Below are positions 14,554 to 31,875 of a stretch of DNA of 64,000 nucleotides, in pieces; position 1 is the stretch's first letter; every line of letters begins with the position of its first letter. The stretch is taken from IMG/VR virus record IMGVR_UViG_3300031841_005609, positions 42,203 to 106,202 of that record. One strand, given 5' to 3'. Both the position numbers and the translations under genes were made by a program. The stretch comes from a virus. Under the pieces are notes generated by a model, which had not been told where the DNA came from, searched no databases, and was given only the letters and a program-made list of their open reading frames with translations.

Positions 14554-15361
14554 CAAGAAGCGCAACGTCGGTCTACTACATGAACAGCTTATTAGGCATG
14601 CTAGTAGAATGACAGTCGAGGGCAGTGTCGAAAAAGCTCAAGATGCAGTCGACATTGTGACTAGGCATTTTAAAAGAGGATCTGAGACCCTGAGAGAATT
14701 CAGGCTTTTTAGCTCTCTTATCCACACTAAGGTTGATTCCAAAGACCTTGCTCAAAGAATCGTTGCTGAAAGCAGAAGAGCATGCATGGATCATGACTCC
14801 GAAAAGCTCCGAAGAGAAAAATCTTTGCTCATAAAAGATATCAATCATCTTTTGAACGAGGAGAGCTTTTACGATCAAAGGATTCCGACCTATAGAATAT
14901 TCGCAACAGTTCAGGCTCTACTCAATGAGTGGCGAGGAGCATCAAGACTCACACCTGCCGAAATTGTAAAGTATGAATCACGGTTGGTTGATCACTTGAC
15001 TCGGCAGGAAGCTGAGAATGAACTCCAGAGATCAGAAAACGCCGATCCTTTAGTACTAAACATAATGATCGAGAAGTTCAACAAGAAGTATGGAAAGACA
15101 CTCTCAGAAGATCAAAGAAAGATTCTTGAGCTCAGGCTTATGAACAAAAACGAAGAAGCTGTTGTTTTGATGGAGTCTGTCAAGAAAAAGACGCTAGCAT
15201 CAATCGATCGATTCTATGAATCTCTTGAAAACGAATATCTTGGAAAGAAAAGAGATGTTCTCGTTGAGAGAGTTACAAATTTTCAGCCAGACGAAACAGA
15301 TGAATCAGTGGCAAAAGCTCTTTCTCTGGCAAATCTTTTATCAGAACTGGAGGCGGAATAA
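14540..15361 (+). CDS. Conserved hypothetical head-module protein
   Basis: SD AGGAG precedes ATG 14540 (MAKHNKKRNVG). Helical protein between portal and protease. Confidence 0.7.
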   Translation: MAKHNKKRNVGLLHEQLIRHASRMTVEGSVEKAQDAVDIVTRHFKRGSETLREFRLFSSLIHTKVDSKDLAQRIVAESRRACMDHDSEKLRREKSLLIKDINHLLNEESFYDQRIPTYRIFATVQALLNEWRGASRLTPAEIVKYESRLVDHLTRQEAENELQRSENADPLVLNIMIEKFNKKYGKTLSEDQRKILELRLMNKNEEAVVLMESVKKKTLASIDRFYESLENEYLGKKRDVLVERVTNFQPDETDESVAKALSLANLLSELEAE

Positions 15362-15972
15362 TGGGCGACAGAAAACTACTGACAGAATGGTTGGCATTTG
15401 ATTACTCTCCTGAGATGATCAAAGAGTCAAGAGAGGCCAATGGCGGGAAACTAATGATGAAAGGTATTTTGCAAAAAGCAGATACTCTTAATCAGAACGG
15501 AAGAATCTATCCCATTGAAATACTTGACAGAGAAGTGAGAAACTACCAGAAGTTTATTAAGGAAAATCGCGCTCTTGGAGAATGTGATCATCCCGACAGC
15601 TCTGTGGTCGAACTTAAGAACGCATCACACATCGTTCGAGAAGCTTACATGAATGATGGTGTATGTTACGGAGTTGTGGAACTGCTGGATACACCAAGCG
15701 GAAAGATATTACAAAGTCTGGTAGAATCAGGCGTAACTTTGGGAATCTCATCAAGAGGCGTTGGATCAACTCGCCGTGAAGGTGATTACGATGTGGTTCA
15801 AGACGATTTTCAATTGATTTGCTGGGATTTCGTTTCAGAACCTTCTACACCAGGCGCCTTCATGATGAAAGAAGGAAAAGATTTTACGCGCGAAGATCTG
15901 AACAGACACTTTACTAAAACCGATAGAGTTGATAGGTTGGTCAACGATATCATTTCTTGGGAGAATGACTAA
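15361..15972 (+). CDS. Prohead core protease (gp21-like)
   Basis: NQNGRIYP, ALGECDHP, SH, TPSGKIL, GISSRGVGS and DFVSEPS. Confidence 0.95.
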   Translation: MGDRKLLTEWLAFDYSPEMIKESREANGGKLMMKGILQKADTLNQNGRIYPIEILDREVRNYQKFIKENRALGECDHPDSSVVELKNASHIVREAYMNDGVCYGVVELLDTPSGKILQSLVESGVTLGISSRGVGSTRREGDYDVVQDDFQLICWDFVSEPSTPGAFMMKEGKDFTREDLNRHFTKTDRVDRLVNDIISWEND

Positions 15973-16828: not shown

Positions 16829-17116
16829 ATGGCAAAAAGAGTAAGAAAGCTCACAGCGGAATCCCTCAGAAGAATGATTCAGCAAGAAGCTCGTAAGCTT
16901 CAAAAAGAATCATCAGATCCTTTCGCTGCCGGAGTTGAGAAAATAGAAAAGGTTTCAGCAGAAGAAGTTGATGCTGATGAGATCGCTGGATCTCTTGAAA
17001 AAGATATCGATTATGTCAAGGCTCTTAAGATTCATGAGAAAAGATTGACCGATAAGCTTAAGAAGATTCAAGAAGCTAAAAACCTTCTTTCAAAAAGAAT
17101 TTCTAAAAACATATAA
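16829..17116 (+). CDS. Hypothetical coiled-coil protein (possible internal head protein)
   Basis: SD AGGAG; KLTAESLRRMIQQE helix. Confidence 0.7.
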   Translation: MAKRVRKLTAESLRRMIQQEARKLQKESSDPFAAGVEKIEKVSAEEVDADEIAGSLEKDIDYVKALKIHEKRLTDKLKKIQEAKNLLSKRISKNI

Positions 17117-17132
17117 GTTCGAGGAGTAGAAA

Positions 17133-17606
17133 ATGCCAACACACAAGCAAGGAACAGTAAGCCCACCGATAACTGAAAGAGGTTTGGGAAAAGCCGGCTC
17201 AAACGATCACTCTGCGATGTTCGGCACTAGTCCAATTCACTCCGGTGAAATGACTCCTGAATCAATAGCTCAGCAATACCAGCAAGAGATTCTGGACGGC
17301 ACAATTAATGACGGCGGTCACACTTTCGGAACCTATGATCCAAATTATCCAGATGCTCCTAACATGGATGATGTTGAGACAGGCGGAGGAGGTCTTCCGG
17401 CCAGCCCATACGTTCCAAACCCTGTGTCCCCCGGGGAGGGATCTGTCGATCCTTCTGATCAAGCTGAGGCTCCTGACGGTTTCGGTGAAACTCCAAGCGC
17501 CACACCCTTCGTAGGTGTAGGATCTCAGCTCTCACCAAAAGCATCTTCAGAGGCTATTGCAAGACAGACTCTTGGAGACTACGGCTTAGGCAAGAGCTCC
17601 AACTAA
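17133..17606 (+). CDS. Pro/Gly-rich hypothetical virion protein, paralogue A
   Basis: SD GAGGAG; co-linear similarity with the next ORF. Confidence 0.7.
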   Translation: MPTHKQGTVSPPITERGLGKAGSNDHSAMFGTSPIHSGEMTPESIAQQYQQEILDGTINDGGHTFGTYDPNYPDAPNMDDVETGGGGLPASPYVPNPVSPGEGSVDPSDQAEAPDGFGETPSATPFVGVGSQLSPKASSEAIARQTLGDYGLGKSSN

Positions 17607-17617
17607 AAGAGAGATAA

Positions 17618-18121
17618 ATGCCCACAGGAAACCAAAACGTTCTTGAGAATGAATTTCCAAACTACGGAAAGACTGGCATTCATTCGAGATCAAATCAAGA
17701 ACGTTTGGCTTCTGCTTTCCCCGACAGCCCTGTACACGACCCGTCTGTTACTTCTTCAACCATAAGAGAATACTACTTTTATGAAGTTCTCTCCGGAGAA
17801 TACGATCCTGACTCTGGTTTTACTCAAAGCAATTACGACTACTCAGAGGCTCCCGAAATTCCTAATACAACGGCTCCTGATGGCGAATCATCTCCCGGAA
17901 ATCCAGGGTCTACAATAGTCTCCTCCGGAAAAGGTCCGAATGTAGCTACTCTCAATAGAAACAATTTACAAACCAATACCTCTCCGATGGTTGAGATAGA
18001 AAACGCTTCTGAGCCTCCCTTTTCAGGTCTTGGTTCTGGAGAAGATCCGAGCGAAACATCTTCTAGAATATCTTCACAAAATTTTGTCACGGGCTTACCG
18101 ATGGGCAAATCATCTGAGTAG
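17618..18121 (+). CDS. Pro/Ser-rich hypothetical virion protein, paralogue B
   Basis: MPT start, SPVH, EVLSG, Y.EAP, PF.G.GS and the GKSS end are shared with the previous ORF. Confidence 0.7.
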   Translation: MPTGNQNVLENEFPNYGKTGIHSRSNQERLASAFPDSPVHDPSVTSSTIREYYFYEVLSGEYDPDSGFTQSNYDYSEAPEIPNTTAPDGESSPGNPGSTIVSSGKGPNVATLNRNNLQTNTSPMVEIENASEPPFSGLGSGEDPSETSSRISSQNFVTGLPMGKSSE

Positions 18122-18124
18122 CCC

Positions 18125-18712
18125 ATGCCTTCTACGAAAATACCAAAGTCAGTAGGTGAACCTTCTATATCACGGCATGATTCAAGATCAGATCTAGGGT
18201 ATGGTAGAATATCAAATAAATTTCACAAGCCCAGAAAAGAGTCTGGAACATTTCCTTACCTAGTAGACCAATACTCAGAAATAGACTGGGAAGACGAAGA
18301 AACTCACGCCGCTATTGAAAAAAAGATTCAGAAGCATCAAAGGTCAGATCCTTTCATGAAGAAGTCAACAAGTCCTTTTTACTTTGCTGCTGGAAATACT
18401 AAACTTTCTGATTGTTTCCAAAGAACAGAAGAAGTCTTGGAAGAAATTCACTCTCTTGGAGATTCAATGTCCCCGATTCCTCATTTGACAAAAAAGAGAA
18501 GAGAGATGTCAGGTGGCTCCAGTGTCCATTCAGGCGGAATTAGCAGCTCAAGCGCCAAAAGAACCGGTTCTGAAAAGGGATATGCGTCAGCTCCTCCTGA
18601 TATAAAATATGACAAAAATGACAACGATCATAACGAAGTAATATTTAATCTAGAAGACCTCGTCAAAAAATTGCAATTAAAGACTGGGAATTTTAGGTAC
18701 CGAAAAACATAG
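18125..18712 (+). CDS. Hypothetical protein
   Basis: Compact ORF in the head operon. Confidence 0.65.
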   Translation: MPSTKIPKSVGEPSISRHDSRSDLGYGRISNKFHKPRKESGTFPYLVDQYSEIDWEDEETHAAIEKKIQKHQRSDPFMKKSTSPFYFAAGNTKLSDCFQRTEEVLEEIHSLGDSMSPIPHLTKKRREMSGGSSVHSGGISSSSAKRTGSEKGYASAPPDIKYDKNDNDHNEVIFNLEDLVKKLQLKTGNFRYRKT

Positions 18713-18737
18713 TTAACGACAGACAAGGTGATCATAG

Positions 18738-20342
18738 ATGAGCAAAACGTTGTTTGAAGAGGCGGTCGCAGACGCCAATAAACTTAGAGAGCTAGCTGAA
18801 GAAACCGCTAAAAATAAAGTGGTCGAAGCAGTCATGCCTCAAATTAGAGACATGATAAATAAAAAGATCTTAGGTGAAGACCTCGACGTTGAGCAAGATA
18901 TCGATGATCTAGATCTTTCTCTAGAGCCTGAGCCTGAAGCAGATGCTTCTGAGCCTGTAAAGGTAGGGTTAGACACTGGGGGCGAAGGATCTGCTGTTAG
19001 CATCAACGTAGATGGTGACGTTGAGATTGATCTCGAAGTAGATGCAGGTGAAAAAGAGGAAGAATTAGTTATGGATCAAGCCATGGCTGAAGCTTTGACT
19101 CGTCTCATTAGAGGTGAGGCCTCTGAAAAGTCCGAACTGGAAGTTAAAATTGACAAACTTTCCGAAAACGTAAACAAACTTGCAAGCGTTTTAAAAATAG
19201 TTAAAAGATCAGATTTAAATGAAAGTCAAGTTAGCAGACTTAAAATAAGCTATCTTTATTGTCTTAGAGAGGCGATAAAATTAAAATCAGGGATAATACT
19301 TACAGAAGATACGACTCAAGAGAGGCTTGAGCGAAGACTGACAGAAACAATTAAGGAGATAAGGAACATGTCGAAGTCAAATCGTCGCAATATTTTCGAC
19401 TTCCTCTTCGAAGGTGAAGATGAGAAGAAGAAAATGGAGGAACTCGAAGAGGCCGAGCTTTCCCTTGAGCTTTCGGCCGATGAACAAGAAGAGCTCGCAG
19501 ATGCAGAGGATGCAGATGCAGTTGGTGATGCCTTAGAAGATATCTTAGGGGATATTGAACTTTCTTTAGGTGGTGGCGAAGAAGAAGCTGCTGAAGAAGA
19601 AGAAGGCGAAGAAGAAGGTGAAGAAGAAGCTGAAGACGAGGAAGTCGAAGTAGCTGAAGACGAAGACCTTGAGGAAGCCGATCACATGGAAGGCGCTTAC
19701 ATGGATGAGGGCGAAGACATGGATGAAGTTTACGAAATAGACGAGAACATGTTGAGAGCTGAGCTTTCTAAGATGCTCAACGAAGACGATGCAGTTGATG
19801 CTGATCCTGCACTCGCTCACGGTGGCGAAGAAATAGGCGATGTTCTTCTTGATGTTTCCGAAGACGATTTGATTAACGCTCTTGCTGATGAGCTTGGGTC
19901 TGTTGCTGATAACGGAGCTGCAGCACCTGCAGTTGCAGAAGGTAGACAGATGAGAAAGCTTCGAAGAGCTCTTAAGGAATCTCAAAATCAGAACGCTCAG
20001 TACAAGAGAGCAGTAACAGAGCTTAAGGGGCAACTTGTTGAAATGAATCTTTTCAACGCAAAGCTTCTTTATGCCAACAAGCTGATGCAGAATAAGGACC
20101 TTTCAATGAAGCAGCAAAAGGCTATCGTTGAGGCACTTGATAACGCACAGACACTTCGAGAGGCGAAGCTTCTTTTCAAGAGCTTGACTGAATCTCTCAA
20201 CAGAAGATCTAAGAAGACTATGAACGAAGGTTCTTTGCGAACAAGCGGTTCATCTTCTAGAACTACTCGATCTTCTGCACCTAAGAACACTAACAATGCC
20301 GAAGCGGATCGATGGGCGATCCTCGCTGGCTTAGCTAAATAA
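18738..20342 (+). CDS. Prohead scaffold/core protein (gp22-like), with probable internal start at 19368
   Basis: Highly acidic; C-terminal coiled coil LVEMNLFNAKLLYANKL..DRWAILAGL; directly upstream of the major capsid gene. Confidence 0.8.
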   Translation: MSKTLFEEAVADANKLRELAEETAKNKVVEAVMPQIRDMINKKILGEDLDVEQDIDDLDLSLEPEPEADASEPVKVGLDTGGEGSAVSINVDGDVEIDLEVDAGEKEEELVMDQAMAEALTRLIRGEASEKSELEVKIDKLSENVNKLASVLKIVKRSDLNESQVSRLKISYLYCLREAIKLKSGIILTEDTTQERLERRLTETIKEIRNMSKSNRRNIFDFLFEGEDEKKKMEELEEAELSLELSADEQEELADAEDADAVGDALEDILGDIELSLGGGEEEAAEEEEGEEEGEEEAEDEEVEVAEDEDLEEADHMEGAYMDEGEDMDEVYEIDENMLRAELSKMLNEDDAVDADPALAHGGEEIGDVLLDVSEDDLINALADELGSVADNGAAAPAVAEGRQMRKLRRALKESQNQNAQYKRAVTELKGQLVEMNLFNAKLLYANKLMQNKDLSMKQQKAIVEALDNAQTLREAKLLFKSLTESLNRRSKKTMNEGSLRTSGSSSRTTRSSAPKNTNNAEADRWAILAGLAK

Positions 20343-20351
20343 GGAGAAAAA

Positions 20352-22220
20352 ATGTCTACATTTTCACTCGAACAGCTGACAGAGGGGATCCGTCAGAGGC
20401 ATCTAGGATCTCAGAACCGTGAGCTGACAGAAAAATGGGCGAGAACTGGTCTTCTCAAGGGTCTTGACGGTGTCAAGCGTGAGAACATGGCTCGCCTCAT
20501 GGAGAACCAGGCCGCCCAGGTTCTTAAGGAGCAGTCATCCCTTTCAAACGGCGGTGGTGGTCTTGCCAACAGCGGCGACATGCGTGGTTTCACGAACATC
20601 GCATTCCCAATTGTTCGTCGCGTATTCGGTGGTTTGATCGCAAATGACCTAGTTTCAATCCAGCCAATGAGCCTTCCGTCCGGACTCTTGTTCTACTTGG
20701 ATTACACACGTCCAGGTTTGACAAGCATCCACGAAGACGGAGTGCATGTAATAAGCTCAGGTTCTTCTGCTTACGGAGATCCAGTTGGAAGCTCAGTCCA
20801 GACAGGTGCCGATGGAAAAGGAGGTCTCTACGACCTTGCTGGAAGCGCCTATTCTAGAGTTCACAGTGCCCAAGACGGGATAACCATATCAAACTCAGGT
20901 TCATTCTCAGGCGCCGACGGCGCATGGAGAGATCACCCAGGCGATGATGCAGCCACTCACCATGAAAGAGTAGTTGCGGCCACCGGTTCTGACGGAAAGG
21001 CGATCCAGTTTGATCCCCAGCTTACTAGCTTGATTGAAGCAAGAACGCACGCTTTTGACATTAAGTTTATCTCTCTTGCGACGGGTTACACAAATGCAGA
21101 CACATCTCTTGTCAAGGAGTGGGGATTGGACGGCGGTACTTGTGGAGCTATCGATAGTGCAATTCAGACAGGGAACAGCAAGAACGTTCGTAGATTAAAT
21201 CAGCTGGTTACCTGGGATGGAACGAATTATGAGCCTGCCCCTCTAGGTGTACCTGGAGAAACAGCGAACCTTCACTTGTTGACAGTATGTTCTTCATCAA
21301 TTCGTACTGCTCCAGGTCTTGGAAACGCTGCAAACGACACGCCTCCTACGAAACTTACTTTCCCGATCAAAGATTCTCTCACATCAGGAAACGGAAGCTC
21401 AGTTGTTGTTCCTTCTTTCGAGTCGGACTTCGGATCAACTCCATCGCCGGCGATTCCAGAGATCGACATCAAGGTTGAGGCTCTTCCTGTTGTAGCTCAG
21501 TCCAGAAAGCTTCGAGCTCGATGGTCACCAGAGCTCGCTCAGGATCTCAATGCATACCACAGTCTTGATGCAGAAGTAGAGCTCACTCAAATTCTCTCAG
21601 AGCAGATCGCTCTTGAGATCGACAGAGAGGTTCTTAACGATCTTCTCACACAAGCTGGTGCAGCTAACTACTACTGGTCAAGAGCTCCTGGTCGATTCCT
21701 CAACAAGGAGACAGGTGCTGTTCAAGACTCTGGTTTCGCTTCTTTCACAGGAACAGTTCGCGAATGGTATGAGACACTTGTTGAAACCATCATTGATGTC
21801 GCTAACCAGATCCACAGAAAGACGCTTAGAGGATCTGCTAACTTCATTGTTGTTGGTCCGGATGTTGCAACAATTCTCGAAGCCTCAGTTCTCTACAAGC
21901 CATCATACAGCTTGGACGGCGACGGCCAGGTGAGCGGAATGGTTATTGGTGCAGAAAAGGTTGGTACTTTGAGCAACCGATTCACAGTCTACAAGGACCC
22001 ATACTTCCCAAGAAATAAGGTTCTCGTAGGTTACAAGGGCGGAAGCTACTTGGAGACAGGCTATGTCTATGCTCCTTATGTACCTTTGATTGTTACACCA
22101 ACAATCTTCGCTCCTGAAGATTTCACTCCTCGTAAGGGCGTTATGACTCGTTACGGCAAGAAGATGGTTCGAGCCGACTTCTACGGAACAGTTACGTGCG
22201 CTGACATGAGCGTGATCTAA
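20352..22220 (+). CDS. Major capsid protein (gp23-like), copy 1
   Basis: FPIVRRVFGGLIANDLVSIQPM..PSGL.FYLD, RKLRARWSPELAQDL, EIDRE, YAPYVPL, FTPRKGVMTRY. Confidence 0.95.
   Translation: MSTFSLEQLTEGIRQRHLGSQNRELTEKWARTGLLKGLDGVKRENMARLMENQAAQVLKEQSSLSNGGGGLANSGDMRGFTNIAFPIVRRVFGGLIANDLVSIQPMSLPSGLLFYLDYTRPGLTSIHEDGVHVISSGSSAYGDPVGSSVQTGADGKGGLYDLAGSAYSRVHSAQDGITISNSGSFSGADGAWRDHPGDDAATHHERVVAATGSDGKAIQFDPQLTSLIEARTHAFDIKFISLATGYTNADTSLVKEWGLDGGTCGAIDSAIQTGNSKNVRRLNQLVTWDGTNYEPAPLGVPGETANLHLLTVCSSSIRTAPGLGNAANDTPPTKLTFPIKDSLTSGNGSSVVVPSFESDFGSTPSPAIPEIDIKVEALPVVAQSRKLRARWSPELAQDLNAYHSLDAEVELTQILSEQIALEIDREVLNDLLTQAGAANYYWSRAPGRFLNKETGAVQDSGFASFTGTVREWYETLVETIIDVANQIHRKTLRGSANFIVVGPDVATILEASVLYKPSYSLDGDGQVSGMVIGAEKVGTLSNRFTVYKDPYFPRNKVLVGYKGGSYLETGYVYAPYVPLIVTPTIFAPEDFTPRKGVMTRYGKKMVRADFYGTVTCADMSVI
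20436..20494 (+). repeat. 59-nt tract identical to 22603-22661
   Basis: Direct comparison of the two capsid genes. A second identical 54-nt tract is 20540-20593 = 22707-22760. Confidence 0.9.
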
Positions 22221-22242
22221 AAGAAGTACGACTTCTAACTAA

Positions 22243-22270
22243 AGGGAGGCTTTTTGCCTCCCTTTTTTTA
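22243..22270 (+). terminator. Rho-independent terminator after capsid copy 1
   Basis: AGGGAGGC-TTTTT-GCCTCCCT followed by a T run. Confidence 0.9.
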
Positions 22271-22287
22271 TTTTTGAAATCGAGTTC

Positions 22288-22295
22288 ATATTTAT
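22288..22295 (+). promoter_or_regulatory. Putative late promoter for capsid copy 2
   Basis: ATATTTATTAACA, identical to the element at 25505-25517. Confidence 0.6.
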
Positions 22296-22518
22296 TAACA
22301 TGCTAGTGAAAAGTTTCACTAGAAAGTGCTTTGCGAAATGGCTGATGAGAATCTGATGCCGCGAGCTTTTGGTGGTTTGAGCATGGTGCAAAAGCCACAA
22401 AACAGAGGATGGATAACCCTGGAATGTCGCCCCGGCAAAAAGCCTAGTGGGGTCGGTCGATGAGTTTTGAACATCCGCTGAAACGATGATAAAGACATTA
22501 CTTATTAAGGAGAAAAAA

Positions 22519-24435
22519 ATGTCAACATTTTCATTGGAGCAGCTGACGGAAGGAATCCGAAGCCGACACCTCGGGTCACAAAACCGACAGCTTGTTGAAA
22601 AGTGGGCGAGAACTGGTCTTCTCAAGGGTCTTGACGGTGTCAAGCGTGAGAACATGGCTCGTCTTATGGAGAATCAGGCGTCACAGGTTCTTAAGGAACA
22701 ATCAAGCCTTTCAAACGGCGGTGGTGGTCTTGCCAACAGCGGCGACATGCGTGGTTTCACAAACATCGCATTCCCGATCGTAAGAAGAGTTTTCGGCGGC
22801 CTTATTGCTAACGATCTCGTAAGCATTCAGCCCATGAGCCTTCCTTCAGGTCTCTTGTTCTACTTGGATTACACAAGAGGAACCGAAGTTGGATCTTCTG
22901 ACAACCCAGTATATAGCAGTGGCGACTCAGTATACAACAGCCCAGTTGGCAAAGGCGTTCAGAGTGGATCTCTCGCAGTTGGTGGACAGTATGACTTGGC
23001 TGGAAGTGGTTACACCAGAGTTCATGAAACAAACGAAGACGTCGACTTAGGCACCGATGGTCTTGCTGCTCTTTCAAGAATTTTTACCATGGACGCAAAC
23101 GGTGATGCTACAGTAGCAACTGCTGCTCAGCTGGATCCAGTCGCGACCACAGGTCGTGCGGGTAAGCTTCTTCAGTTTGATCCACAGATCATAAAGCAGC
23201 TTGACGAAGGAACTGCTGAATATCACTTCATGCTTATTCCTCTGACCACTGACTGCTTCGGCTCAAACTTTGACACGACTCTTGTGAAGGAAGTTGGACT
23301 AGTTGTTCACACCGCCCTGCCGTCAGATGTTCTTCTCAACGTAGACAGCTCTGTACAAAGCGGTTCAACTAGAAACGTTAGACGTTTGAATCAGCTTGTT
23401 ACAGTTACTGGTGGAACTGACGCCGCCGCACTTACTACTGATAACATCGAGGCTCTGACTTCTACCCCGCTTGCTCAAGTTGGCGACACCGGTGCATGTT
23501 TGCTCATGGTTGTTCGACACAAGCCAGGTTCAACGTTCGCTGCTAGCGATCTTAACGATGGCGATCACATCGGAATCACCTATCCTGTTGCAGACAAGTT
23601 AGAGTCAGGAAGCGGCAGCTCAGTTGTTGTTCCTTCTTTCGAGTCTAACTTCGGAGCAACTCCATCACCTGAGATCCCAGAGATCGACATTAAGGTTGAG
23701 GCTTTGCCAGTTGTAGCTCAGTCACGTAAGTTGCGAGCACGTTGGTCACCAGAGCTTGCTCAGGATCTTAATGCATACCACAGCCTTGACGCTGAGGTTG
23801 AGTTGACACAGATCCTTTCAGAGCAGATCGCTCTTGAGATCGATAGAGAAGTTCTTAACGACCTTCTTACCCAGGCGGGAGCTGCTAACTACTACTGGTC
23901 ACGTGCACCAGGTCGTTTCTTGAACAAGGAGACAGGTTCAGTTTCAAGCATCGGTACTTTCACCGGTACGGTTCGTGAGTGGTATGAGACTCTCGTAGAG
24001 ACGATTATCGACGTTGCAAACCAGATCCACAGAAAGACACTGCGTGGTTCCGCAAACTTCATCGTTGTTGGACCAGACGTTGCTACTATCCTTGAAGCAA
24101 GCGTTCTCTACAAGCCATCATACAGCCTCGACGGTGACGGACAGGTTAGTGGTATGGTGATCGGAGCTGAGAAGGTTGGTACCCTTTCAAATCGTTTCAC
24201 GGTTTACAAGGATCCTTACTTCCCACGCAACAAGGTTCTTGTTGGATACAAGGGCGGAAGCTACCTTGAGACTGGTTACGTATACGCTCCATACGTACCT
24301 CTCATCGTTACTCCAACGATCTTCGCACCTGAGGACTTCACCCCACGTAAGGGTGTCATGACTCGCTACGGTAAGAAGATGGTTCGAAGTGACTTCTACG
24401 GTACCGTTACATGCGCCGACATGAGCGTGATCTAA
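22519..24435 (+). CDS. Major capsid protein (gp23-like), copy 2
   Basis: Same motifs as copy 1. The start is placed at 22519 (TAAGGAG + A-rich spacer + MSTFSLEQL), not at the tracked 22486. Confidence 0.95.
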   Translation: MSTFSLEQLTEGIRSRHLGSQNRQLVEKWARTGLLKGLDGVKRENMARLMENQASQVLKEQSSLSNGGGGLANSGDMRGFTNIAFPIVRRVFGGLIANDLVSIQPMSLPSGLLFYLDYTRGTEVGSSDNPVYSSGDSVYNSPVGKGVQSGSLAVGGQYDLAGSGYTRVHETNEDVDLGTDGLAALSRIFTMDANGDATVATAAQLDPVATTGRAGKLLQFDPQIIKQLDEGTAEYHFMLIPLTTDCFGSNFDTTLVKEVGLVVHTALPSDVLLNVDSSVQSGSTRNVRRLNQLVTVTGGTDAAALTTDNIEALTSTPLAQVGDTGACLLMVVRHKPGSTFAASDLNDGDHIGITYPVADKLESGSGSSVVVPSFESNFGATPSPEIPEIDIKVEALPVVAQSRKLRARWSPELAQDLNAYHSLDAEVELTQILSEQIALEIDREVLNDLLTQAGAANYYWSRAPGRFLNKETGSVSSIGTFTGTVREWYETLVETIIDVANQIHRKTLRGSANFIVVGPDVATILEASVLYKPSYSLDGDGQVSGMVIGAEKVGTLSNRFTVYKDPYFPRNKVLVGYKGGSYLETGYVYAPYVPLIVTPTIFAPEDFTPRKGVMTRYGKKMVRSDFYGTVTCADMSVI

Positions 24436-24460
24436 TAAAAATTTAGATCAAAATGTATCT

Positions 24461-24494
24461 GGGGCGTCCTGAAAAGGACGCCCCTTTTTTTTTT
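24461..24494 (+). terminator. Rho-independent terminator after capsid copy 2
   Basis: GGGGCGTCCT-GAAA-AGGACGCCCC followed by T10. Confidence 0.95.
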
Positions 24495-24532
24495 GAAGCG
24501 ACCTTGAAATTCTTTAGATACTTAAAAGAGTT

Positions 24533-25081
24533 ATGTCTAAAAAGTCAAAAAAATCAAGCAGTCTAGAAAGTCTTCGAAAACTTGTTGATAATCTAACTGA
24601 TAGAGACGTTCAGATCAAAAGAGACTTTCGACTTTTCGAGTCGTTTCTTGAGAACTTCCCCATCCCAGTCACCATGTGGTCTGCAAACTTAGACGGACTA
24701 GTCTTGAACAAAAAAGACAGAGGTTTCTTTTGCAAGACGGGAGACAAGATTGAAGATCTGTTTTCTTGTGAGTCTCTTGCAGACACTGTTTTCAAAAAAC
24801 ACAAGGAAGCTCTTTCCGGAGAGCCTAACAGCACTTTGATTCAAAAGATGGAAAAAACTTTCTATGTAACAGTTGCTCCTCGACATGATAACGATAACAT
24901 TGTCATAGGAGTTTCTGGAATTGCGTGGGATGTATCTTCTAACAGTTTCATATTAGATACATTGATCGACATTAAAAATGTCACAGAGACGAAATCTGGG
25001 ACTTTTGAAGAGATTAATGAAAAAGCTTCTAAAGCTATTGAAAAGAGTAGACTTTTTCTTCTAGCAAAGGAGGGCAAGTAA
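24533..25081 (+). CDS. PAS/PAC-domain protein
   Basis: Coiled coil, then FLENFPIPVTMWSANLDG...HKEALSGEP...FYVTVAPRHDNDNIVIGVSGIAWDVS, the typical PAS/PAC pattern. Confidence 0.75.
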   Translation: MSKKSKKSSSLESLRKLVDNLTDRDVQIKRDFRLFESFLENFPIPVTMWSANLDGLVLNKKDRGFFCKTGDKIEDLFSCESLADTVFKKHKEALSGEPNSTLIQKMEKTFYVTVAPRHDNDNIVIGVSGIAWDVSSNSFILDTLIDIKNVTETKSGTFEEINEKASKAIEKSRLFLLAKEGK

Positions 25082-25082
25082 G

Positions 25083-25415
25083 ATGTCATCTGATTCAAAC
25101 CAAAATGGATGGAATGAATATTCTAGACTGGTTTTAAAAGAACTTGAAAATCTTGCAGACAACATTGACGGTCTCAAGGAAGAGCTTCAAGAAGTCAAGC
25201 AAGAAATTGCCAAGATGCAAGTTCGAGAAGACAAGGTAGATGAGCTTAAGACCTGGAAAGAGAAAGTAGACGAAGTAGTTTCTCCAACCCAGCTGTCCAA
25301 TCTTGTCAAAGAAGTCGAAGAGCTTAAGATGTTCAAGACCAAGGCAATCACCACATTTGCAGTCGTTCAGTTCTTGATGGCTCTTTGGGCTTGGTCTCAA
25401 AAATTTATGCAATAA
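25083..25415 (+). CDS. Coiled-coil protein with C-terminal hydrophobic helix (holin/XhlA-like architecture)
   Basis: Heptad repeats followed by AITTFAVVQFLMALWAW. Confidence 0.55.
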   Translation: MSSDSNQNGWNEYSRLVLKELENLADNIDGLKEELQEVKQEIAKMQVREDKVDELKTWKEKVDEVVSPTQLSNLVKEVEELKMFKTKAITTFAVVQFLMALWAWSQKFMQ

Positions 25416-25530
25416 ATTTCTTAAGCATAGGTTGAACTAATCAGCCCAGCGATCATGCGAAATCTTTCAACAATTAAAGACCCAGATAATTGCAAGTCGA
25501 CTCGATATTTATTAACAGTGAGGTGTGTAA

Positions 25531-26700
25531 ATGTCTAGATTTGTCGACATATTGAATCCAACTCCTTTTGGATTTTTTGACTCTGAGATTGCTTTTCAAA
25601 ACGAAGCCGATTCTGTCGTCACTTTCATAAAGAGAAAGCTTGGTGATGATATCCTTAGTGTTGAACTAACCAAGCGACAGATCTGGGCCTGCCTTGAAGA
25701 ATCCGCTTTGGAATACAGCTCGATCATAAATCAGTATCAGGCAAAGTCTCAGCTTGCGAATCTTCTAGGGGGACCAACAGGTTCACTGGATGGTGTAGAG
25801 CAAAAGTTTCCAAGAGAAAATCTAGAGTTTATGCTTCGAAGAGCTGAACCCTATTCTATGGAAGCGGGTCTCGGCGGTGTTTATAACATGCTTTCCGGAT
25901 CTATTGCTCTCGAAAAAGGAAAGCAGGACTACGATCTGTATTCAGATCTCAAAGGAGCCGATGGCAACGCTCTATTCGATAATGCTGCTAACAATCCGAA
26001 AACTAAGATGAAAGTGATGGAAGTTTTTCACTTCAGCCCACAGGCTGCATATCGATTTTTCGATACAACTTCTGCTATCAACTATCTTAACAACGAATTT
26101 AGCTTTGAGTCATTTACACCAGAGACAGTCTTTTATGTGCTACCAGTTTTTGAGGATGTTCTCCGAGGCGGAATGCTTGATATGTCCTCGAGAGTTAGAA
26201 GAAGTAACTTTTCATATAAAATAACTGGAACAAAGATAAGAATCTTTCCGATTCCCACGAGTACAAACCCACAGAATCTTTTTATAAGAGTTCACTTTTC
26301 GCCTGATCCACTTAAGCCGGCTTTTAAAGATGCCTCTATTGAGGGCATTAGCAATCTTTCCAACATTCCGTATGGAAGACTTGAATATTCTAGAATTAAT
26401 TCTATTGGAAGGCAATGGATCAGACAGTATGCCCTTGCTCTTTCTCGAGAGTTACTAGGGTTGGTTAGATCTAAATTTTCAACAGTACCTATTCCTGGTT
26501 CTGATCTTCAGTTGAACGGAACAGAGTTAATATCCCAGGGAAGAGAGGACAAAGAAAACTTAAAGACAAAACTAGGAGAAATGCTAGACGAGCTAACATA
26601 TGACAAGATGCTTGAGTCAGAAGCGGCAGCTAGCGAAAATCTTACCAGAATTCTTAAAGCTATTCCGATGCCAAACGGAAAAGCAATTTCAATGGGTTAA
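25531..26700 (+). CDS. Neck/head-tail adaptor (gp13-like)
   Basis: IKRKLG..LSVELT..Q, WIRQYALAL.RELLGLVRSKF...PG...LNG..L..G: the gp13 pattern. Confidence 0.8.
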   Translation: MSRFVDILNPTPFGFFDSEIAFQNEADSVVTFIKRKLGDDILSVELTKRQIWACLEESALEYSSIINQYQAKSQLANLLGGPTGSLDGVEQKFPRENLEFMLRRAEPYSMEAGLGGVYNMLSGSIALEKGKQDYDLYSDLKGADGNALFDNAANNPKTKMKVMEVFHFSPQAAYRFFDTTSAINYLNNEFSFESFTPETVFYVLPVFEDVLRGGMLDMSSRVRRSNFSYKITGTKIRIFPIPTSTNPQNLFIRVHFSPDPLKPAFKDASIEGISNLSNIPYGRLEYSRINSIGRQWIRQYALALSRELLGLVRSKFSTVPIPGSDLQLNGTELISQGREDKENLKTKLGEMLDELTYDKMLESEAAASENLTRILKAIPMPNGKAISMG

Positions 26701-26706
26701 CAATAG

Positions 26707-27375
26707 ATGGCTAGACTTTTTATAACCCCACGAGAAATAGATCTGATATCAGACTTGACCAAAGAGGTCATCAAAGATGTCGCTGGTCAAAAAGTCTATT
26801 ACTACAGGGTTAGAGAAGACTTAAGCAACGTTCATGACGTGTACGAAGAGTCACCTGACAAAGTTTTTGACCCTCCTATCGAAGTTGAAGCAAGAGTTGA
26901 ATATCTACCAGAAGAAATAAGAACGAATCGTTTTGGCGGAGAAGAGTTTTACTCTATTAACGTTTTCTTTCATGAACGAGATCTCCTAGACAGAGATATT
27001 GATGTTCGAACCGGTGATTACTTTAGCTACGGAGACACTTTTTTCGAAATAACCAGTGCTATCGTTGAGTCAAACGTTTACGGACAGATTGAGCATGCTA
27101 TTGGAGTTAAAGTAACCGGAAAGCAGGCGAGAATCGGACAAATAGATAAGACTCCTAACGGACCTACTAGCGAGCAATACACCGATGAGGATGCTGTTCA
27201 AGAGACTTTCGTTCAACAGAGAGGCTTCGAGGAGAACAGGCTTGGGCCCACCGAAGACAAGAGACAACTTCAGGAAGACGGAAAGCTTGACAAGCCTTTG
27301 ACGGGACCTCAAGAAGTTTCACCTCGAGCAGACAAAGAAGATGAAGTGAAGTCTTCTTTTTATGATGAGATTTAA
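26707..27375 (+). CDS. Neck/head closure protein (gp14-like)
   Basis: GQKVYYY...DVYEES..KVF..P..GDYF..FFEI; follows the gp13-like gene. Confidence 0.7.
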   Translation: MARLFITPREIDLISDLTKEVIKDVAGQKVYYYRVREDLSNVHDVYEESPDKVFDPPIEVEARVEYLPEEIRTNRFGGEEFYSINVFFHERDLLDRDIDVRTGDYFSYGDTFFEITSAIVESNVYGQIEHAIGVKVTGKQARIGQIDKTPNGPTSEQYTDEDAVQETFVQQRGFEENRLGPTEDKRQLQEDGKLDKPLTGPQEVSPRADKEDEVKSSFYDEI

Positions 27376-27377
27376 AA

Positions 27378-28664
27378 ATGTCGACTCGATACTATAAAAA
27401 CAAAAACGATGGGACTTCAAGATCTGCTGGATACGAAGGTTCGAACATACCTGACGACTTTAATGTTCCTTCGTGTACTATAGAGGATGTTGACAGAGCT
27501 CTTTTCGATCTCTTTGACAAGCAGCTTCCGTTTACATACAAGCATAAAGAAGGTACTAAAAGAGCTCCGGTTATATTCGCATCAGGCGAAAGATTTGCCG
27601 TCCTTAGGAGAAAAGAACCCTTAAGGGACAAGTCAGGGGCTCTTGTTCTTCCGCTTGTCTCTATAATGAGAACAGGAATATCTCAGGTTCCTACGATGGG
27701 AGCTGGAACATCTCAGAATACTCCTCACGTCGTGAAGAGAAAGCTTTCAAAAGATGACCCTGAGTATCAAAGGCTTCTAAACAAAAGGGGACTAAGAAAC
27801 TCCGACGACCTTCCGTCTAAGAATTCTCTTGCTGATCCTGAGAATCCCGTAAAAGAAAAGGCTGCTCCTGGAAAGAACGCTTCCAGAAGAGACATACCTT
27901 CTAGGAGAGACACGAACGATATCGGAAATCCTCTAGGTCAGAACATCTATGAGATCATTGAGATACCGCCGCCGAAATATTTTACTGCATCTTACGAGAT
28001 AACACTCTGGTCACAGTACACTCTTCAGATGAACGATATGATAACGGCTCTCATGTCCCTATATCAGTCGTATTCTCAGAGAACCTTTCAGCTTGAGACA
28101 GACAAGGGATACTGGTTTGTAGGCTACGCCGGAGAGGACCTCAATCCTGGTAACAACTTTGATGATTTCACAGATAGTGAAAGAATAGTCAGGTACACAT
28201 TTACTATGACAGTCCCGGGCTATCTTGTCAATCCCCAGTTCCCCGGAAGTCAAAACGGAGTGAGAAGATATGTTTCTGCTCCTGAGATATCTTTTGATGC
28301 AATCCTCTCTGCTGGAGAGTTTGAACCTTTCACCCAGGAAGGACCAATTTCCGGAAATCCTTCTGATCATGTCCTTGAGGACTTGAGAACTGTTGATGAA
28401 CCGCTCCCTGGCCAGCAAATAGGGTCGACAAATTTTGCAGCTTCAGATTCTCGTGGCATATTTAGAAAAAGACAAGGTTCTCAATCGGTCGATTCAGCTC
28501 TAAAGCAAACGTCGATTGGGGGCACTTTCACTGACGATAATAGGACAAAAATTATTCAATATGATAGAGATCCTTTCACCGGAAAGAAGATTAGAAAATC
28601 TCTCCATGTCAAAAACAGAACGAATAGAATGGGAGAGACGGTTTTGAGAGAGACTCTTGATTAG
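27378..28664 (+). CDS. Tail terminator/sheath stabiliser (gp15-like)
   Basis: APVIFASGER, LVLPLVSIMR, PKYFTASYEITLWSQY..QMN; precedes the sheath genes. Confidence 0.65.
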   Translation: MSTRYYKNKNDGTSRSAGYEGSNIPDDFNVPSCTIEDVDRALFDLFDKQLPFTYKHKEGTKRAPVIFASGERFAVLRRKEPLRDKSGALVLPLVSIMRTGISQVPTMGAGTSQNTPHVVKRKLSKDDPEYQRLLNKRGLRNSDDLPSKNSLADPENPVKEKAAPGKNASRRDIPSRRDTNDIGNPLGQNIYEIIEIPPPKYFTASYEITLWSQYTLQMNDMITALMSLYQSYSQRTFQLETDKGYWFVGYAGEDLNPGNNFDDFTDSERIVRYTFTMTVPGYLVNPQFPGSQNGVRRYVSAPEISFDAILSAGEFEPFTQEGPISGNPSDHVLEDLRTVDEPLPGQQIGSTNFAASDSRGIFRKRQGSQSVDSALKQTSIGGTFTDDNRTKIIQYDRDPFTGKKIRKSLHVKNRTNRMGETVLRETLD

Positions 28665-28719
28665 AATTTTGAAACGAACATGATAATTAAAAGATGCATA
28701 GAACGTTCTAGGAGATACA

Positions 28720-31700
28720 ATGGCTGAGCAAACATTTAGATCACCCGGGTTTTTTGAACAGGAAATTGACCTTTCTGCTAGGCAAATAGCTCCTGTCGGA
28801 ACACCCGCTGGAGTCATAGGTACATCAGAATTTGGACCCGCATTTGTTCCAGTAACGGTAGGATCTTTCGCCGATTTTGAATCACGTTTTGGTACGCTAC
28901 ACCCAGACAGATTCGGACCTTATGCCGTAAGAGAATTTTTAAAGCACAGATCAGCTTTAACCTATCTTAGAGTTTTGGGAGCTGGAGCCAATGAGACCTC
29001 CACAGACATCCAGAACACTGAGCAGTACGGTTACGTTAAAAACGCCGGCTTCCGACTTACCGGTTCTTTGATGACTGACACTGATGGCGAAGGCGCTGAT
29101 GATCTTGCATTTCAGGGCGGTGTTGCTATTATATCTGCTAAACACACGCCCGTTGCTCACGAAGCGGCCAGCTATAGCTTATATACAGATAATGCTAGTA
29201 TTAGTAACAACACTGACGCTCATCTGGTCAGAGGCGTTGTCTTCTTAACAACTGGTTCTAAGCTCCAGATTCTTGATCACGATCAAAACTGGTCAATCGT
29301 AAATTCAAGAGCCGCCGGCGCTGAGGTCGGTGCCATTGGTGGTCTTTCAGATCAGAAATATTTTAAGCTTGCGATCAGCTCTTCTGCTGGAGCTTCTTTT
29401 TCAAATGATGAAGGAGTCCCGGGAATTAGAATTCTTACCGCATCCCTTGATCCGAACGACGGACAGTACATCGGCAAAGTTCTAAACACAAATCCACAGA
29501 ATTTTCAGAAGGAGCAACACCTTCTCTACTTAGACTATGCAGTTGAGCACGAACTCGCTCCTGTTACTGTAACCCCAGGAACAGACACAGTTGCAGTTCT
29601 TTCTGGTACGATAAATACTTCTACTAGAAACTCACTAAGATATGACAACATTGTAGGTCGTTACGACACGAGATACACAACTCCTCGAACTACAAGCTTT
29701 ATATCACAACCTTTCGGAAAGAAGGAGTTTGATCTCTTTCACTTTGAGACAATTTCTGATGGTGCTTATGCAAACGATAAATTTAAGGTCTCTATAGCTA
29801 ATCTTCGGGCTTCGACGGATCCGAACGATGCTTACGGAACTTTTGAAGTCCAGGTAAGACTCTTCGATGACAAAGATACATCTACTGAGATCATCGAGAG
29901 ATATCCTGAATGTAGTCTCAACCCAAGAAGCGATAGATACGTTGCTAGAGTTATTGGTGACAAAAAGGTTAGATACGATTTCGATCAGGAAGATCCTTCG
30001 GAAAGACGTCTTGTAATAACAGGAAAATATCCAAACCTTTCTTCTAGAATTAGAATCCAAATGAACGCTGGGATAGAAGCCGGCGAAGTTCCTGCAACTG
30101 CGCTTCCTTTTGGTTTTAGAGGAATACCGGTTCTAAAGACCAACAATTCTTTGACTGATGGTCTTACTGGACTCACCGACTCTGAGTCAAGAGCTTTGGG
30201 GGAAACAGTCCCAGACAATAGAAAGACACACAGGCTTAATTCTAACACTGATGCTGTTGCGCTAACAAGAGCAATAGTTCCTCCGATGCCGTATAGATTT
30301 AAGGTAACTAGAGGGGAAGCATCTTCTGATTCTACACCTGGTTTCGTTGGAACTCCTGGAACAAACGAAAGAGTTGACGGAAGATATTATTGGGGTGTTA
30401 ATTCATTAAGAATTCCAACTGCAGGATCTACTACAAATCCTGTCCTCAATTCAAACGCAGGAAACACGGTTAATCCTCTCGTTAGGGCTTATACCAAGTT
30501 CCAAGGAATTGAGAAGCTGGATGCACTTGTTTCTGGTTCTGCTGCTGATGAATTTAACTCAAACAAGTTCACGCTTGCAAGAGTTGCCTTCTCAAACAAA
30601 ACGGCAAACAACTCTCTATATGATGTTTTCTCAGCCTTTACTGGATCAGCTCCGGAGCACATGCTTGAAGCTGCTTACATCAGAGACGGACAGCCGGATA
30701 GAAACACGTATGTTGTGGATGATAGAGTCGCCGCAGGAAATAGATTTACTCTCGCTTCTTTGATTCACACTAGCTCGGTTCTCTTTAACAGATTCACCTC
30801 TTACGCTAAGTTTACCAACGTGTTCCACGGCGGATTCGACGGGCTTAATATCCTAGACAGAGATCTCTCGCTATTCAGGGATAAGGCGTTCTCAGTAGAC
30901 GCCGGAGGTAAATCAGTTGAAACAGGAATGAATATCGGTCTCGCTGATGTTGATTCAAAGAACCAGGGTGGTTCCGGAAGAAGAAGCAACAGTAACGCAT
31001 CTATGAGAAGAGCTGTTGATATCATGACTGATCCGATGTCTTCGAACATCAACATCCTTGCAATACCGGGCGTAAGAGAAACATTCGTATCGGATCACGC
31101 CCTTGAGAAGACCAGAGATTATTCGAAGGCTATGTACTTGCTAGATACTCTAAAGTACGATGAAAACGGAAATAGACTTTACGACGACAGCAAGGCTCGA
31201 GTGGATGTGAGAGAAACATCAGAGCAGTTCGAGAGCAGAGCTATCGACAACAACTACGCAGCTACATACTTCCCAGATGTTTTTATACAGGATCCTATTA
31301 ACAACAGAAATGTTAAGGTTCCTGCTTCGGTAGCGGCTTTGGGAACGTTGGCTTTCAACGACAGAGTTTCTTTCCCTTGGTTCGCACCTGCTGGTTTTAA
31401 TCGAGGTGGAATGGACTTCGTTGTAAATGTCGAAAACAGACTCACTTCTGGAGACAGAGACACACTGTATGATGCAAGAATGAATCCTATAGCTGTTTTC
31501 CCGAACACTGGTTTCGTTATCTTCGGGCAGAAAACTCTGCAGTTTACAAAGTCTGCTCTCGACAGAGTCAACGTTAGACGCCTGATGCTAGAGATTAAAC
31601 GACAGGTTACTGGAGTGGCTGAAAGATTCTTGTTCGAGCCGAACAACGCTACGACTCGATCTAGGTTCGTAAGCCAGATAACTCCACTTCTTGGACTCAT

Positions 31701-31875
31701 CCAGTTGCAGGCAGGTATAGAGCAATTTAAGGTTATCTGTGATGCTTCCAATAACACCTCTGAAGAGGTCGAGCAAAACAGAATGAATGGACGAATCGTT
31801 GTTGTACCTACTAGAGCGGTTGAATTTATCTCAATCGACTTTATCATAACAAATAGCGGCGTGTCCTTTGAGTAA
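28720..31875 (+). CDS. Tail sheath protein 1 (gp18-like)
   Basis: SPG..EQEIDLS, GPAFVPV, WFAPAGFNRG, FGQKTL, DRVNVRRL, PTRAVEFI. Confidence 0.95.
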   Translation: MAEQTFRSPGFFEQEIDLSARQIAPVGTPAGVIGTSEFGPAFVPVTVGSFADFESRFGTLHPDRFGPYAVREFLKHRSALTYLRVLGAGANETSTDIQNTEQYGYVKNAGFRLTGSLMTDTDGEGADDLAFQGGVAIISAKHTPVAHEAASYSLYTDNASISNNTDAHLVRGVVFLTTGSKLQILDHDQNWSIVNSRAAGAEVGAIGGLSDQKYFKLAISSSAGASFSNDEGVPGIRILTASLDPNDGQYIGKVLNTNPQNFQKEQHLLYLDYAVEHELAPVTVTPGTDTVAVLSGTINTSTRNSLRYDNIVGRYDTRYTTPRTTSFISQPFGKKEFDLFHFETISDGAYANDKFKVSIANLRASTDPNDAYGTFEVQVRLFDDKDTSTEIIERYPECSLNPRSDRYVARVIGDKKVRYDFDQEDPSERRLVITGKYPNLSSRIRIQMNAGIEAGEVPATALPFGFRGIPVLKTNNSLTDGLTGLTDSESRALGETVPDNRKTHRLNSNTDAVALTRAIVPPMPYRFKVTRGEASSDSTPGFVGTPGTNERVDGRYYWGVNSLRIPTAGSTTNPVLNSNAGNTVNPLVRAYTKFQGIEKLDALVSGSAADEFNSNKFTLARVAFSNKTANNSLYDVFSAFTGSAPEHMLEAAYIRDGQPDRNTYVVDDRVAAGNRFTLASLIHTSSVLFNRFTSYAKFTNVFHGGFDGLNILDRDLSLFRDKAFSVDAGGKSVETGMNIGLADVDSKNQGGSGRRSNSNASMRRAVDIMTDPMSSNINILAIPGVRETFVSDHALEKTRDYSKAMYLLDTLKYDENGNRLYDDSKARVDVRETSEQFESRAIDNNYAATYFPDVFIQDPINNRNVKVPASVAALGTLAFNDRVSFPWFAPAGFNRGGMDFVVNVENRLTSGDRDTLYDARMNPIAVFPNTGFVIFGQKTLQFTKSALDRVNVRRLMLEIKRQVTGVAERFLFEPNNATTRSRFVSQITPLLGLIQLQAGIEQFKVICDASNNTSEEVEQNRMNGRIVVVPTRAVEFISIDFIITNSGVSFE

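Follow-up and report, generated by a model that had tools for sequence, protein, structure and literature searches.

Why would a T4-like phage keep two full-length major capsid genes side by side, and where in the head would the second protein go? The question is raised by the final 64 kb (64,000 nucleotides, hereafter the window) of the 106-kb IMG/VR viral contig IMGVR_UViG_3300031841_005609, the estimated completeness of which is 38%. In it, two tandem genes (copy 1 and, downstream of it, copy 2) encode capsid proteins with near-identical ends and divergent centres; this layout had been noticed in an initial annotation made from the letters alone, and it was confirmed, with the borders of the centres (Table 1) close to those drawn at that time. 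The tandem pair is genuine and is kept in a related phage. As to its role, copy 2 may make up most of the hexons, and copy 1 may be a minor subunit specialised for certain positions, most likely an equivalent of the T4 vertex protein gp24 that is young and of independent origin; judging from the sequence, we give this reading a probability of roughly 0.4.

A genuine tandem pair

Both genes belong to the T4 gp23-type family, on the grounds of profile and of fold. Their scores against the Pfam Gp23 profile (PF07068, Table 1) lie well above the curated cut-off of 24.4 bits, they are assigned to PHROG 138 (major head protein), and the profile of the gp23-type family hit PDB chains of T4 gp23 (E about 1e-36). 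When the predicted structure of copy 1 was searched with Foldseek, the T4 gp23 chains 7vrt, 6uzc and 5vf3 ranked first, with a probability of 1.0; the monomer model of copy 1 is poor outside the centre (predicted local distance difference test, pLDDT, of 64), so that its template-modelling scores to T4 gp23 are low. The start of copy 2 is most likely the ATG at 22519 and not 22486, because the AAGGAG-spacer-ATG arrangement and the N-terminus MSTFSLEQ found there are common to copy 1 and the relatives. No third gp23-like or gp24-like gene was found in the 106-kb contig.

The whole proteins of copy 1 and copy 2 are 73% identical (BLASTP), with 96.7% identity over the N-terminal 120 amino acids (aa) and 95.7% over the C-terminal ~278 aa; in the family alignment, the core is 97.6% and the centre 43% identical. 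Among the identical residues about half of the codons differ synonymously between the copies, and the identity at third positions is 0.54–0.60. The many synonymous differences described for the C-terminal halves are thus real, and they amount in the C-terminal core (C-core) to a synonymous divergence (dS) of 1.35, with a ratio of nonsynonymous to synonymous divergence (dN/dS) of 0.034 (Nei-Gojobori). The propeptide of T4 gp23-type proteins is cut off by the prohead protease at L/I-x-E sites, and both copies have L-x-E motifs (e.g., LKE, aa 58–60) N-terminal to the part aligned with the beginning of mature T4 gp23.

A search with both insertion domains retrieved the contig IMGVR_UViG_3300012936_000333, which holds the loci L083 and L084 (L083 or the sister below). 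It is collinear with window positions 20985–29614 over 8.6 kb, at 87.7% identity, and has the same order, namely copy 1 (clipped by the contig end), a spacer that is about 96% identical, copy 2, and the same five downstream genes. In the window, the spacer between the copies comprises 298 nucleotides (nt), which are unique except for the final 29 nt; for the other 270 nt, no match was obtained in 160 loci. Tandem capsid genes are also present in a second and distant lineage, L025 (86% protein and 78% DNA identity, the centre differing most), and L031 contains an independent assembly of the same junction, 99.4% identical.

The initial annotation had itself named a strain-chimeric assembly as what could undo it, i.e., an assembler joining two strain variants of one capsid gene in tandem; the source contig is a metagenome assembly, the copies have exact repeats of 59 nt and 54 nt in common and the L025 contig stops directly after its copy 2, but with 270 nt of unique sequence within the junction, with the same junction, spacer and gene order in a separate contig that is 12% diverged (L083), and with L031 crossing the L025 junction independently, such an artefact is close to refuted, and we reject it.

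The copy number was surveyed in 162 contigs, i.e., the window and 161 relative loci, the relatives being the best 80 each from IMG/VR and from metagenomes, of at least 600. Pairs are present in three of them (the window, L083 and L025), and among the single-copy loci there are 64 with flanks on both sides ample to reveal a second copy. The nearest relative with a single capsid gene is L004, in which the gene order is otherwise the same as in the window. Four relatives that are 75–93% complete have one gp23-type gene each, and no gp24-like gene was found in them; therefore, one protein would normally build both hexons and pentons in this clade, and the two-gene state is probably derived within it. 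The same survey of relatives, which had been proposed at the outset for copy number and insert alleles, also indicated that the centres are exchanged family-wide.

Insertion domains, cores and the ancestry of the copies

The divergent centre is located at the site of the T4 gp23 insertion domain, between two conserved blocks that align with gp23 (family profile alignment), and it is the variable part across the whole family. In the structure models, the pLDDT is about 90 over aa 170–320 of copy 1, and the predicted template-modelling score is 0.80 for the insertion domain of copy 2. The predicted fold has no convincing match among solved structures (best VIA Z 3.0; none in the PDB by Foldseek at E <= 0.001) and one match in BFVD, an unnamed protein of 523 aa (E 6e-4), and the lack of a solved-structure match does not make this fold new.

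For copy 2 against L004, dS is 0.34 in the core and about 2.1 in the centre, where the nonsynonymous divergence (dN) is 0.68; for copy 1 of the window against copy 1 of L083, it is 0.21 in the core and 1.64 in the available part of the centre, which is 67% identical as protein. In the family, pairs with a core identity of at least 0.94 usually have centres that are 60–90% identical, and the corresponding values for the trio of copy 1, copy 2 and L004 are 37–43%. Recombination with unsampled alleles is preferred to fast protein evolution, because the jump hits synonymous sites; even close relatives differ by exchange of the entire insertion-domain allele. The same synonymous jump, with the centre far above the core, was observed in the single-copy pairs L061-L056, L071-L058 and L015-L040; therefore, the replacement of insertion-domain alleles is family-wide and not tied to the tandem state. 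No donor of the alleles was found among the 160 loci, in which the centres of this clade are about 40–49% identical to the other sampled centres.

Another candidate source of variation, which we rejected, was a diversity-generating retroelement. Such an element would require a reverse transcriptase as well as a template repeat, with differences confined to adenines. No RVT_1 match was found in the 106-kb contig (38% complete), and the pattern of differences is wrong, as the centres differ by insertions and deletions and by all base changes over about 700 nt.

With regard to selection, neither copy contains stop codons or frameshifts, in the window or in L083. Between these two phages, copy 2 has a dS of 0.22 and a dN/dS of 0.10, and the C-core of copy 1 a dS of 0.21 and a dN/dS of 0.047. 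These values point to two intact and functional copies that have been under strong purifying selection since the window and L083 split, with the shell cores held alike, as had been supposed from the window only.

The copies are no simple in-situ duplicate. In the C-core nucleotide tree, copy 2 of L083 and copy 2 of the window are joined by L004, while the copies 1 of L083 and of the window form the other group; the C-core dS to the L004 gene is 0.34 for copy 2 and 1.33 for copy 1. The intergenic region 3' of copy 2 is 90% identical to that 3' of the L004 capsid gene, and the 29 nt before copy 2 (22490–22518) resemble the end of the L004 scaffold gene with its ribosome-binding site (86% to L004 4640–4668). 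Taken together, the tree, the two dS values and the flanking likeness to L004 show that copy 2 is the resident gene, orthologous to the single capsid gene of L004, and that copy 1 is an additional and anciently diverged one, which would be either an old paralog that L004 lost or a capture from a related phage. The protein divergence of the core between copy 1 and copy 2 (2.4%) equals the value between copy 2 and L004, despite a fourfold higher dS.

The scaffold-end likeness is limited to the last 29 nt of the spacer, and since the remaining 270 nt were unmatched, a decayed scaffold gene was rejected as the origin of the spacer. At 20340–20352, when compared with L004 4630–4668, the scaffold gene of the window stops ~12 nt earlier and lacks a GACATTAAAAAA-like stretch; this stretch is kept in the leader of copy 2, and the block that was copied or captured thus has its 5' edge there.

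The genes around the pair are far more diverged than the capsid genes themselves, with a dS of at least 1.5 or saturated between the window and L004, and of 0.75–1.66 between the window and L083. The low divergence of the capsid region could be due to recombination, or to the codon-bias constraint that high expression imposes on a gene. The same was observed for the whole block, as 20352–24532 has a much lower synonymous divergence than the flanks 16829–20342 and 24533–31875, against both L083 and L004, and the non-coding spacer is about 96% identical to that of L083, next to 81–92% in the downstream genes; here, codon-bias constraint or a recent recombinational sweep could be responsible.

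Near their 5' ends, the two copies have in common two exact tracts, located where they had been placed initially: one of 59 nt (20436–20494 = 22603–22661) and one of 54 nt (20540–20593 = 22707–22760). When the core codons were shuffled, a run of at least 59 nt appeared in 20 of 20,000 trials and both tracts jointly in none of 20,000. A scan of dS along the genes, one of the checks proposed initially, gave 0.255 for residues 29–81, with saturated adjoining segments. Compared site by site over gene nt 85–243, the two copies of the window have hardly any differences, whereas copy 2 of L083 departs from copy 1 at about 12 sites, several of them matching L004; therefore, copy 1 was the donor of the patch and copy 2 the acceptor. 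The identical tracts are not explained by constraint acting generally on DNA or RNA, because L004 differs freely there. We thus regard the patch as a recent gene conversion, from copy 1 into copy 2, in the window lineage after its split from L083, which supports the gene conversion suspected at these tracts and adds a direction to it. Similar identical patches (107, 56 and 48 nt) are present in the L025 pair. Overall, the propeptide and the shell-forming core are held about 98% identical by selection, aided by such patches.

Expression signals and possible roles in the shell

Copy 1 has no promoter motif of its own; the stop of the putative scaffold gene is located 9 nt upstream of its start, and a strong terminator-like hairpin (22241–22265, before the T run) follows its end, as does one at 24461–24484 for copy 2. 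The signals ascribed to copy 2 from the start, i.e., a promoter motif and a long leader, as well as the terminators of both copies, are present at the level of motifs (Table 1). Four matches to the motif ATATTTATYA are present (at 1178, 22288, 25505 and 37375 of the window) against 0.21 expected, always on the + strand, intergenic and before genes, and the motif is a plausible candidate for the late-promoter consensus of this phage group, the counterpart of the T4 late promoter. Looser versions of it were seen before other structural genes. The leader of copy 2 matches no Rfam family at threshold and does not fold better than shuffled sequence (z -0.76), and on these grounds the spacer was rejected as a known or strongly structured RNA. 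Right after the promoter motif there is a hairpin (22303–22322) with an 8-bp stem that is kept in L083, the sole small hairpin so kept; in L083, one T-A pair is changed to T-G and three of the four loop bases are changed. Such a stem could stabilise the 5' end of the transcript of copy 2.

Copies 1 and 2 have equally strong ribosome-binding sites and differ in codon bias. The effective number of codons (ENC) is 46.5 for copy 1, above the upper quartile, and 40.6 for copy 2, the median of 79 single-copy capsid genes being 40.9, and the asymmetry is also present in the C-cores of L083.

If both copies are late genes, as their signals suggest, the common propeptide and core would give both proteins the same scaffold to dock on, the same prohead protease for cleavage and a place in the same lattice. 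With the same propeptide, the same core and a late appearance of both genes, co-assembly is therefore the default expectation, and both proteins would be built into the same shell.

The comparison to make is with T4. There, gp24 is a shell protein turned vertex specialist, the case found in textbooks: it forms pentamers at the eleven non-portal vertices, is far less abundant than the major capsid protein, has only about 30% identity to gp23, and carries a short propeptide. Like the pair in the window, gp23 and gp24 are encoded by adjacent genes of the gp23 family in a module with the order portal, protease, scaffold, capsid, and they differ from each other in the insertion-domain region. Furthermore, gp24, a paralog of gp23, is regarded as having been added recently, and bypass mutants exist for it (PMC3012670), so that the second gene is dispensable in principle, in T4 as in the one-gene relatives here. 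Cyanomyoviruses (PMC2984593) and Sinorhizobium phage PhiM9 (PMC4621102) are reported to be without gp24 and to use a single capsid protein for hexons and pentons, which is also the state of our close relatives with one gp23-type gene and no gp24; unlike these single-capsid members of the T4 superfamily, the window phage and two other contigs gained a second full-length copy.

The window does have a gp23 paralog adjoining the major capsid gene, in reversed order when compared with T4. Deep divergence and a short propeptide, which mark the gp24 lineage, are absent: the copies are 97.6% identical in the core, have the full-length propeptide in common, and are still homogenised in patches by conversion. 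In the C-core tree, the window pair groups together and excludes all other family members. The identity of the core, the shared propeptide and this exclusive grouping therefore argue for an independent and young pair, confined to a small clade, instead of a member of the gp24 lineage; nevertheless, copy 1 may work like gp24.

As a minor subunit, copy 1 would be expressed less than copy 2, and its weaker codon bias is weak evidence that points that way. Several observations weigh against a vertex or minor position of copy 1. The coupling to the scaffold gene, the product of which is presumably abundant, and the strong ribosome-binding site do not suggest a stoichiometry of 1:20–30, a full propeptide and a 98% identical core suit a vertex-only role no better than equivalent positions in the lattice, and the extra gene is located upstream of the main gene, the opposite of T4. 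The codon bias, weak as it is, has no parallel in the L025 pair, which is without the ENC asymmetry. Both the co-assembly and the shell positions of the two proteins are what we infer from their genes. In addition, since the flanks have diverged more than the capsid region, an old duplication with later loss from L004 is inseparable from a foreign capture. On balance, we slightly favour the vertex or minor role, and thereby lean to an alternative, a strictly vertex-bound copy, that the initial annotation had named as evidence against itself.

Nearly as likely, and still tentative, is a capsid with a mixed surface, in which both proteins are abundant, occupy hexon positions either interchangeably or in separate capsomers, and display two different insertion domains. 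Together with the cassette-like replacement of the domains, the pair would diversify the capsid surface under frequency-dependent selection, with capsid-sensing host defences, surface binding partners or decoration proteins as possible drivers. Such a surface would suit the same propeptide, 98% identical core and same ribosome-binding site of both copies, as well as the coupling of copy 1 to the scaffold gene next to a separate promoter motif for copy 2; it is also in line with allele swaps on near-identical cores (centre/core dS of 2.1/0.34 for copy 2 and L004, and of 1.64/0.21 for copy 1 and its sister) and with the same decoupling of core and centre in single-copy lineages. The weaker codon bias of copy 1 speaks against a mixed surface, as does the fact that no donor allele was found among the 160 relatives.

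More doubtful is a further step, in which the pair is a system for the diversification of the capsid surface, with co-assembling proteins, a core held by selection and conversion, and insertion domains swapped as cassettes. If true, phage populations would be polymorphic for a capsid surface of two components, and an external partner, e.g., capsid-sensing host defences, would be the driver. The mosaicism of tail fibres and receptor-binding proteins is a working analogy for it, with conserved flanks, divergent central alleles and a sharp synonymous jump at the borders; unlike there, the swapped part here is the insertion domain of a shell protein and not a host-recognition protein, and the donor alleles are unsampled. 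We found no paper specific to gp23-type duplicates in which the cores match and the insertion domains are exchanged.

It is rather improbable that the pair is a neutral or transitional state, i.e., a by-product of recombination between co-infecting phages, similar to a "heterozygous" intermediate of insertion-domain exchange, with a redundant copy to be lost through the conserved cores. The family-wide replacement of the domain and the rarity of pairs (3 of 162 surveyed contigs) agree with this, the identical tracts provide deletion sites, and the scaffold-end-like 29 nt before copy 2 indicate the copying or capture of a block that came from an ordinary junction of scaffold and capsid genes. 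However, both copies stayed intact at a dN/dS of 0.05–0.10 while the flanking genes of the window and its sister reached a dS of 0.75–1.66, the spacer is conserved with its own terminator and promoter motif, the paralogs stand at a dS of about 1.35 with no decay, and the second lineage, L025, retains its pair at a similar divergence.

Very improbable, finally, is an alternative use of the copies, in which separate regulation makes one or the other shell protein dominant according to host or conditions, so that the surface is switchable and not mixed. The signals of the two genes do differ, copy 1 being part of the scaffold operon with a terminator, and copy 2 having its own motif, a ~220-nt leader and a terminator, but the motif of copy 2 is the same as before other late structural genes, so that both look late, the leader folds like shuffled sequence and matches no RNA family, and no invertase, inverted repeats or riboswitch were seen.

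Whichever of the two leading readings holds, vertex specialist or mixed surface, the pair has a value that the T4 pair cannot offer, as the latter is too old to reveal how vertex specialisation began. The window would contain a natural early stage of capsid-protein subfunctionalisation, or else a two-component capsid surface. Because 98% of the core and the whole propeptide are common, conversion is ongoing and only the insertion domain differs, the pair looks like an early step toward a specialised second capsid protein such as T4 gp24, with close single-gene relatives on hand for comparison. Moreover, the replacement of whole insertion-domain alleles in a widespread aquatic phage family bears on the use of g23 as a diversity marker and on ideas about selection on capsid surfaces.

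Head module and relatives

The source is a giant T4-like phage that is uncultured. No near-identical DNA was found in isolated phages, and the best protein matches are to an uncultured 484-kb phage (38%) and to Flavobacterium phage immuto (43%); therefore, there is no cultured model. The features discussed above are collected in Table 1, together with the T4-type head module on the + strand, to which the tandem capsid genes belong by position, with terminase, portal and protease upstream and the tail sheath downstream.

Table 1. Positions of the capsid gene pair, its subregions and signals, and the surrounding head genes in the window.
Feature	Position	Strand	Remark
Major capsid gene copy 1, 622 aa	20352–22220	+	Pfam Gp23 PF07068, E 6.8e-76, 256.5 bits
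Major capsid gene copy 2, 638 aa	22519–24435	+	Pfam Gp23 PF07068, E 1.9e-76, 258.4 bits
Copy 1 insertion domain, aa 121–348	20712–21395	+	43% identical to copy 2 centre
Copy 2 insertion domain, aa 121–366	22879–23616	+	L083 93%, L004 about 40% identical
Conversion patch, copy 1 (donor side)	20436–20593	+	contains the 59-nt and 54-nt identical tracts
Conversion patch, copy 2 (acceptor side)	22603–22760	+	equals copy 1 here
Terminator-like hairpin and T run after copy 1	22241–22275	+	10-bp stem, 6 G-C; fully conserved in L083
ATATTTATTA, candidate late-promoter motif for copy 2	22288–22297	+	in spacer; conserved in L083
Copy 2 leader, about 220 nt	22298–22518	+	about 96% identical to L083
Terminator-like hairpin and T run after copy 2	24461–24494	+	10-bp stem, 8 G-C
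Large terminase	11004–12569	+	head module
gp20-type portal	12625–14553	+	PF07230
gp21-type prohead protease	15361–15972	+	PF03420; then several small genes before the scaffold gene
Putative scaffold gene, 534 aa	18738–20342	+	by position only, between gp21-type protease and capsid gene
Neck genes, then tail sheath	28720–31875 (sheath)	+	downstream of the capsid pair

The putative scaffold gene has no Pfam or PHROG match, and L004 has a 520-aa gene that is syntenic with it.

Pieces of capsid sequence were also observed elsewhere among the relatives. In the 318-kb relative L009, an open reading frame of 229 aa (14389–15078) is located ~4.5 kb downstream of the capsid gene, and its N-terminus is 32% identical to the propeptide region, while in the same genome (G001:C1:103208-103336) a 118-aa frame matches positions 13–56 of the Gp23 profile. 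These two frames may be small genes that hold a slice of the capsid protein.

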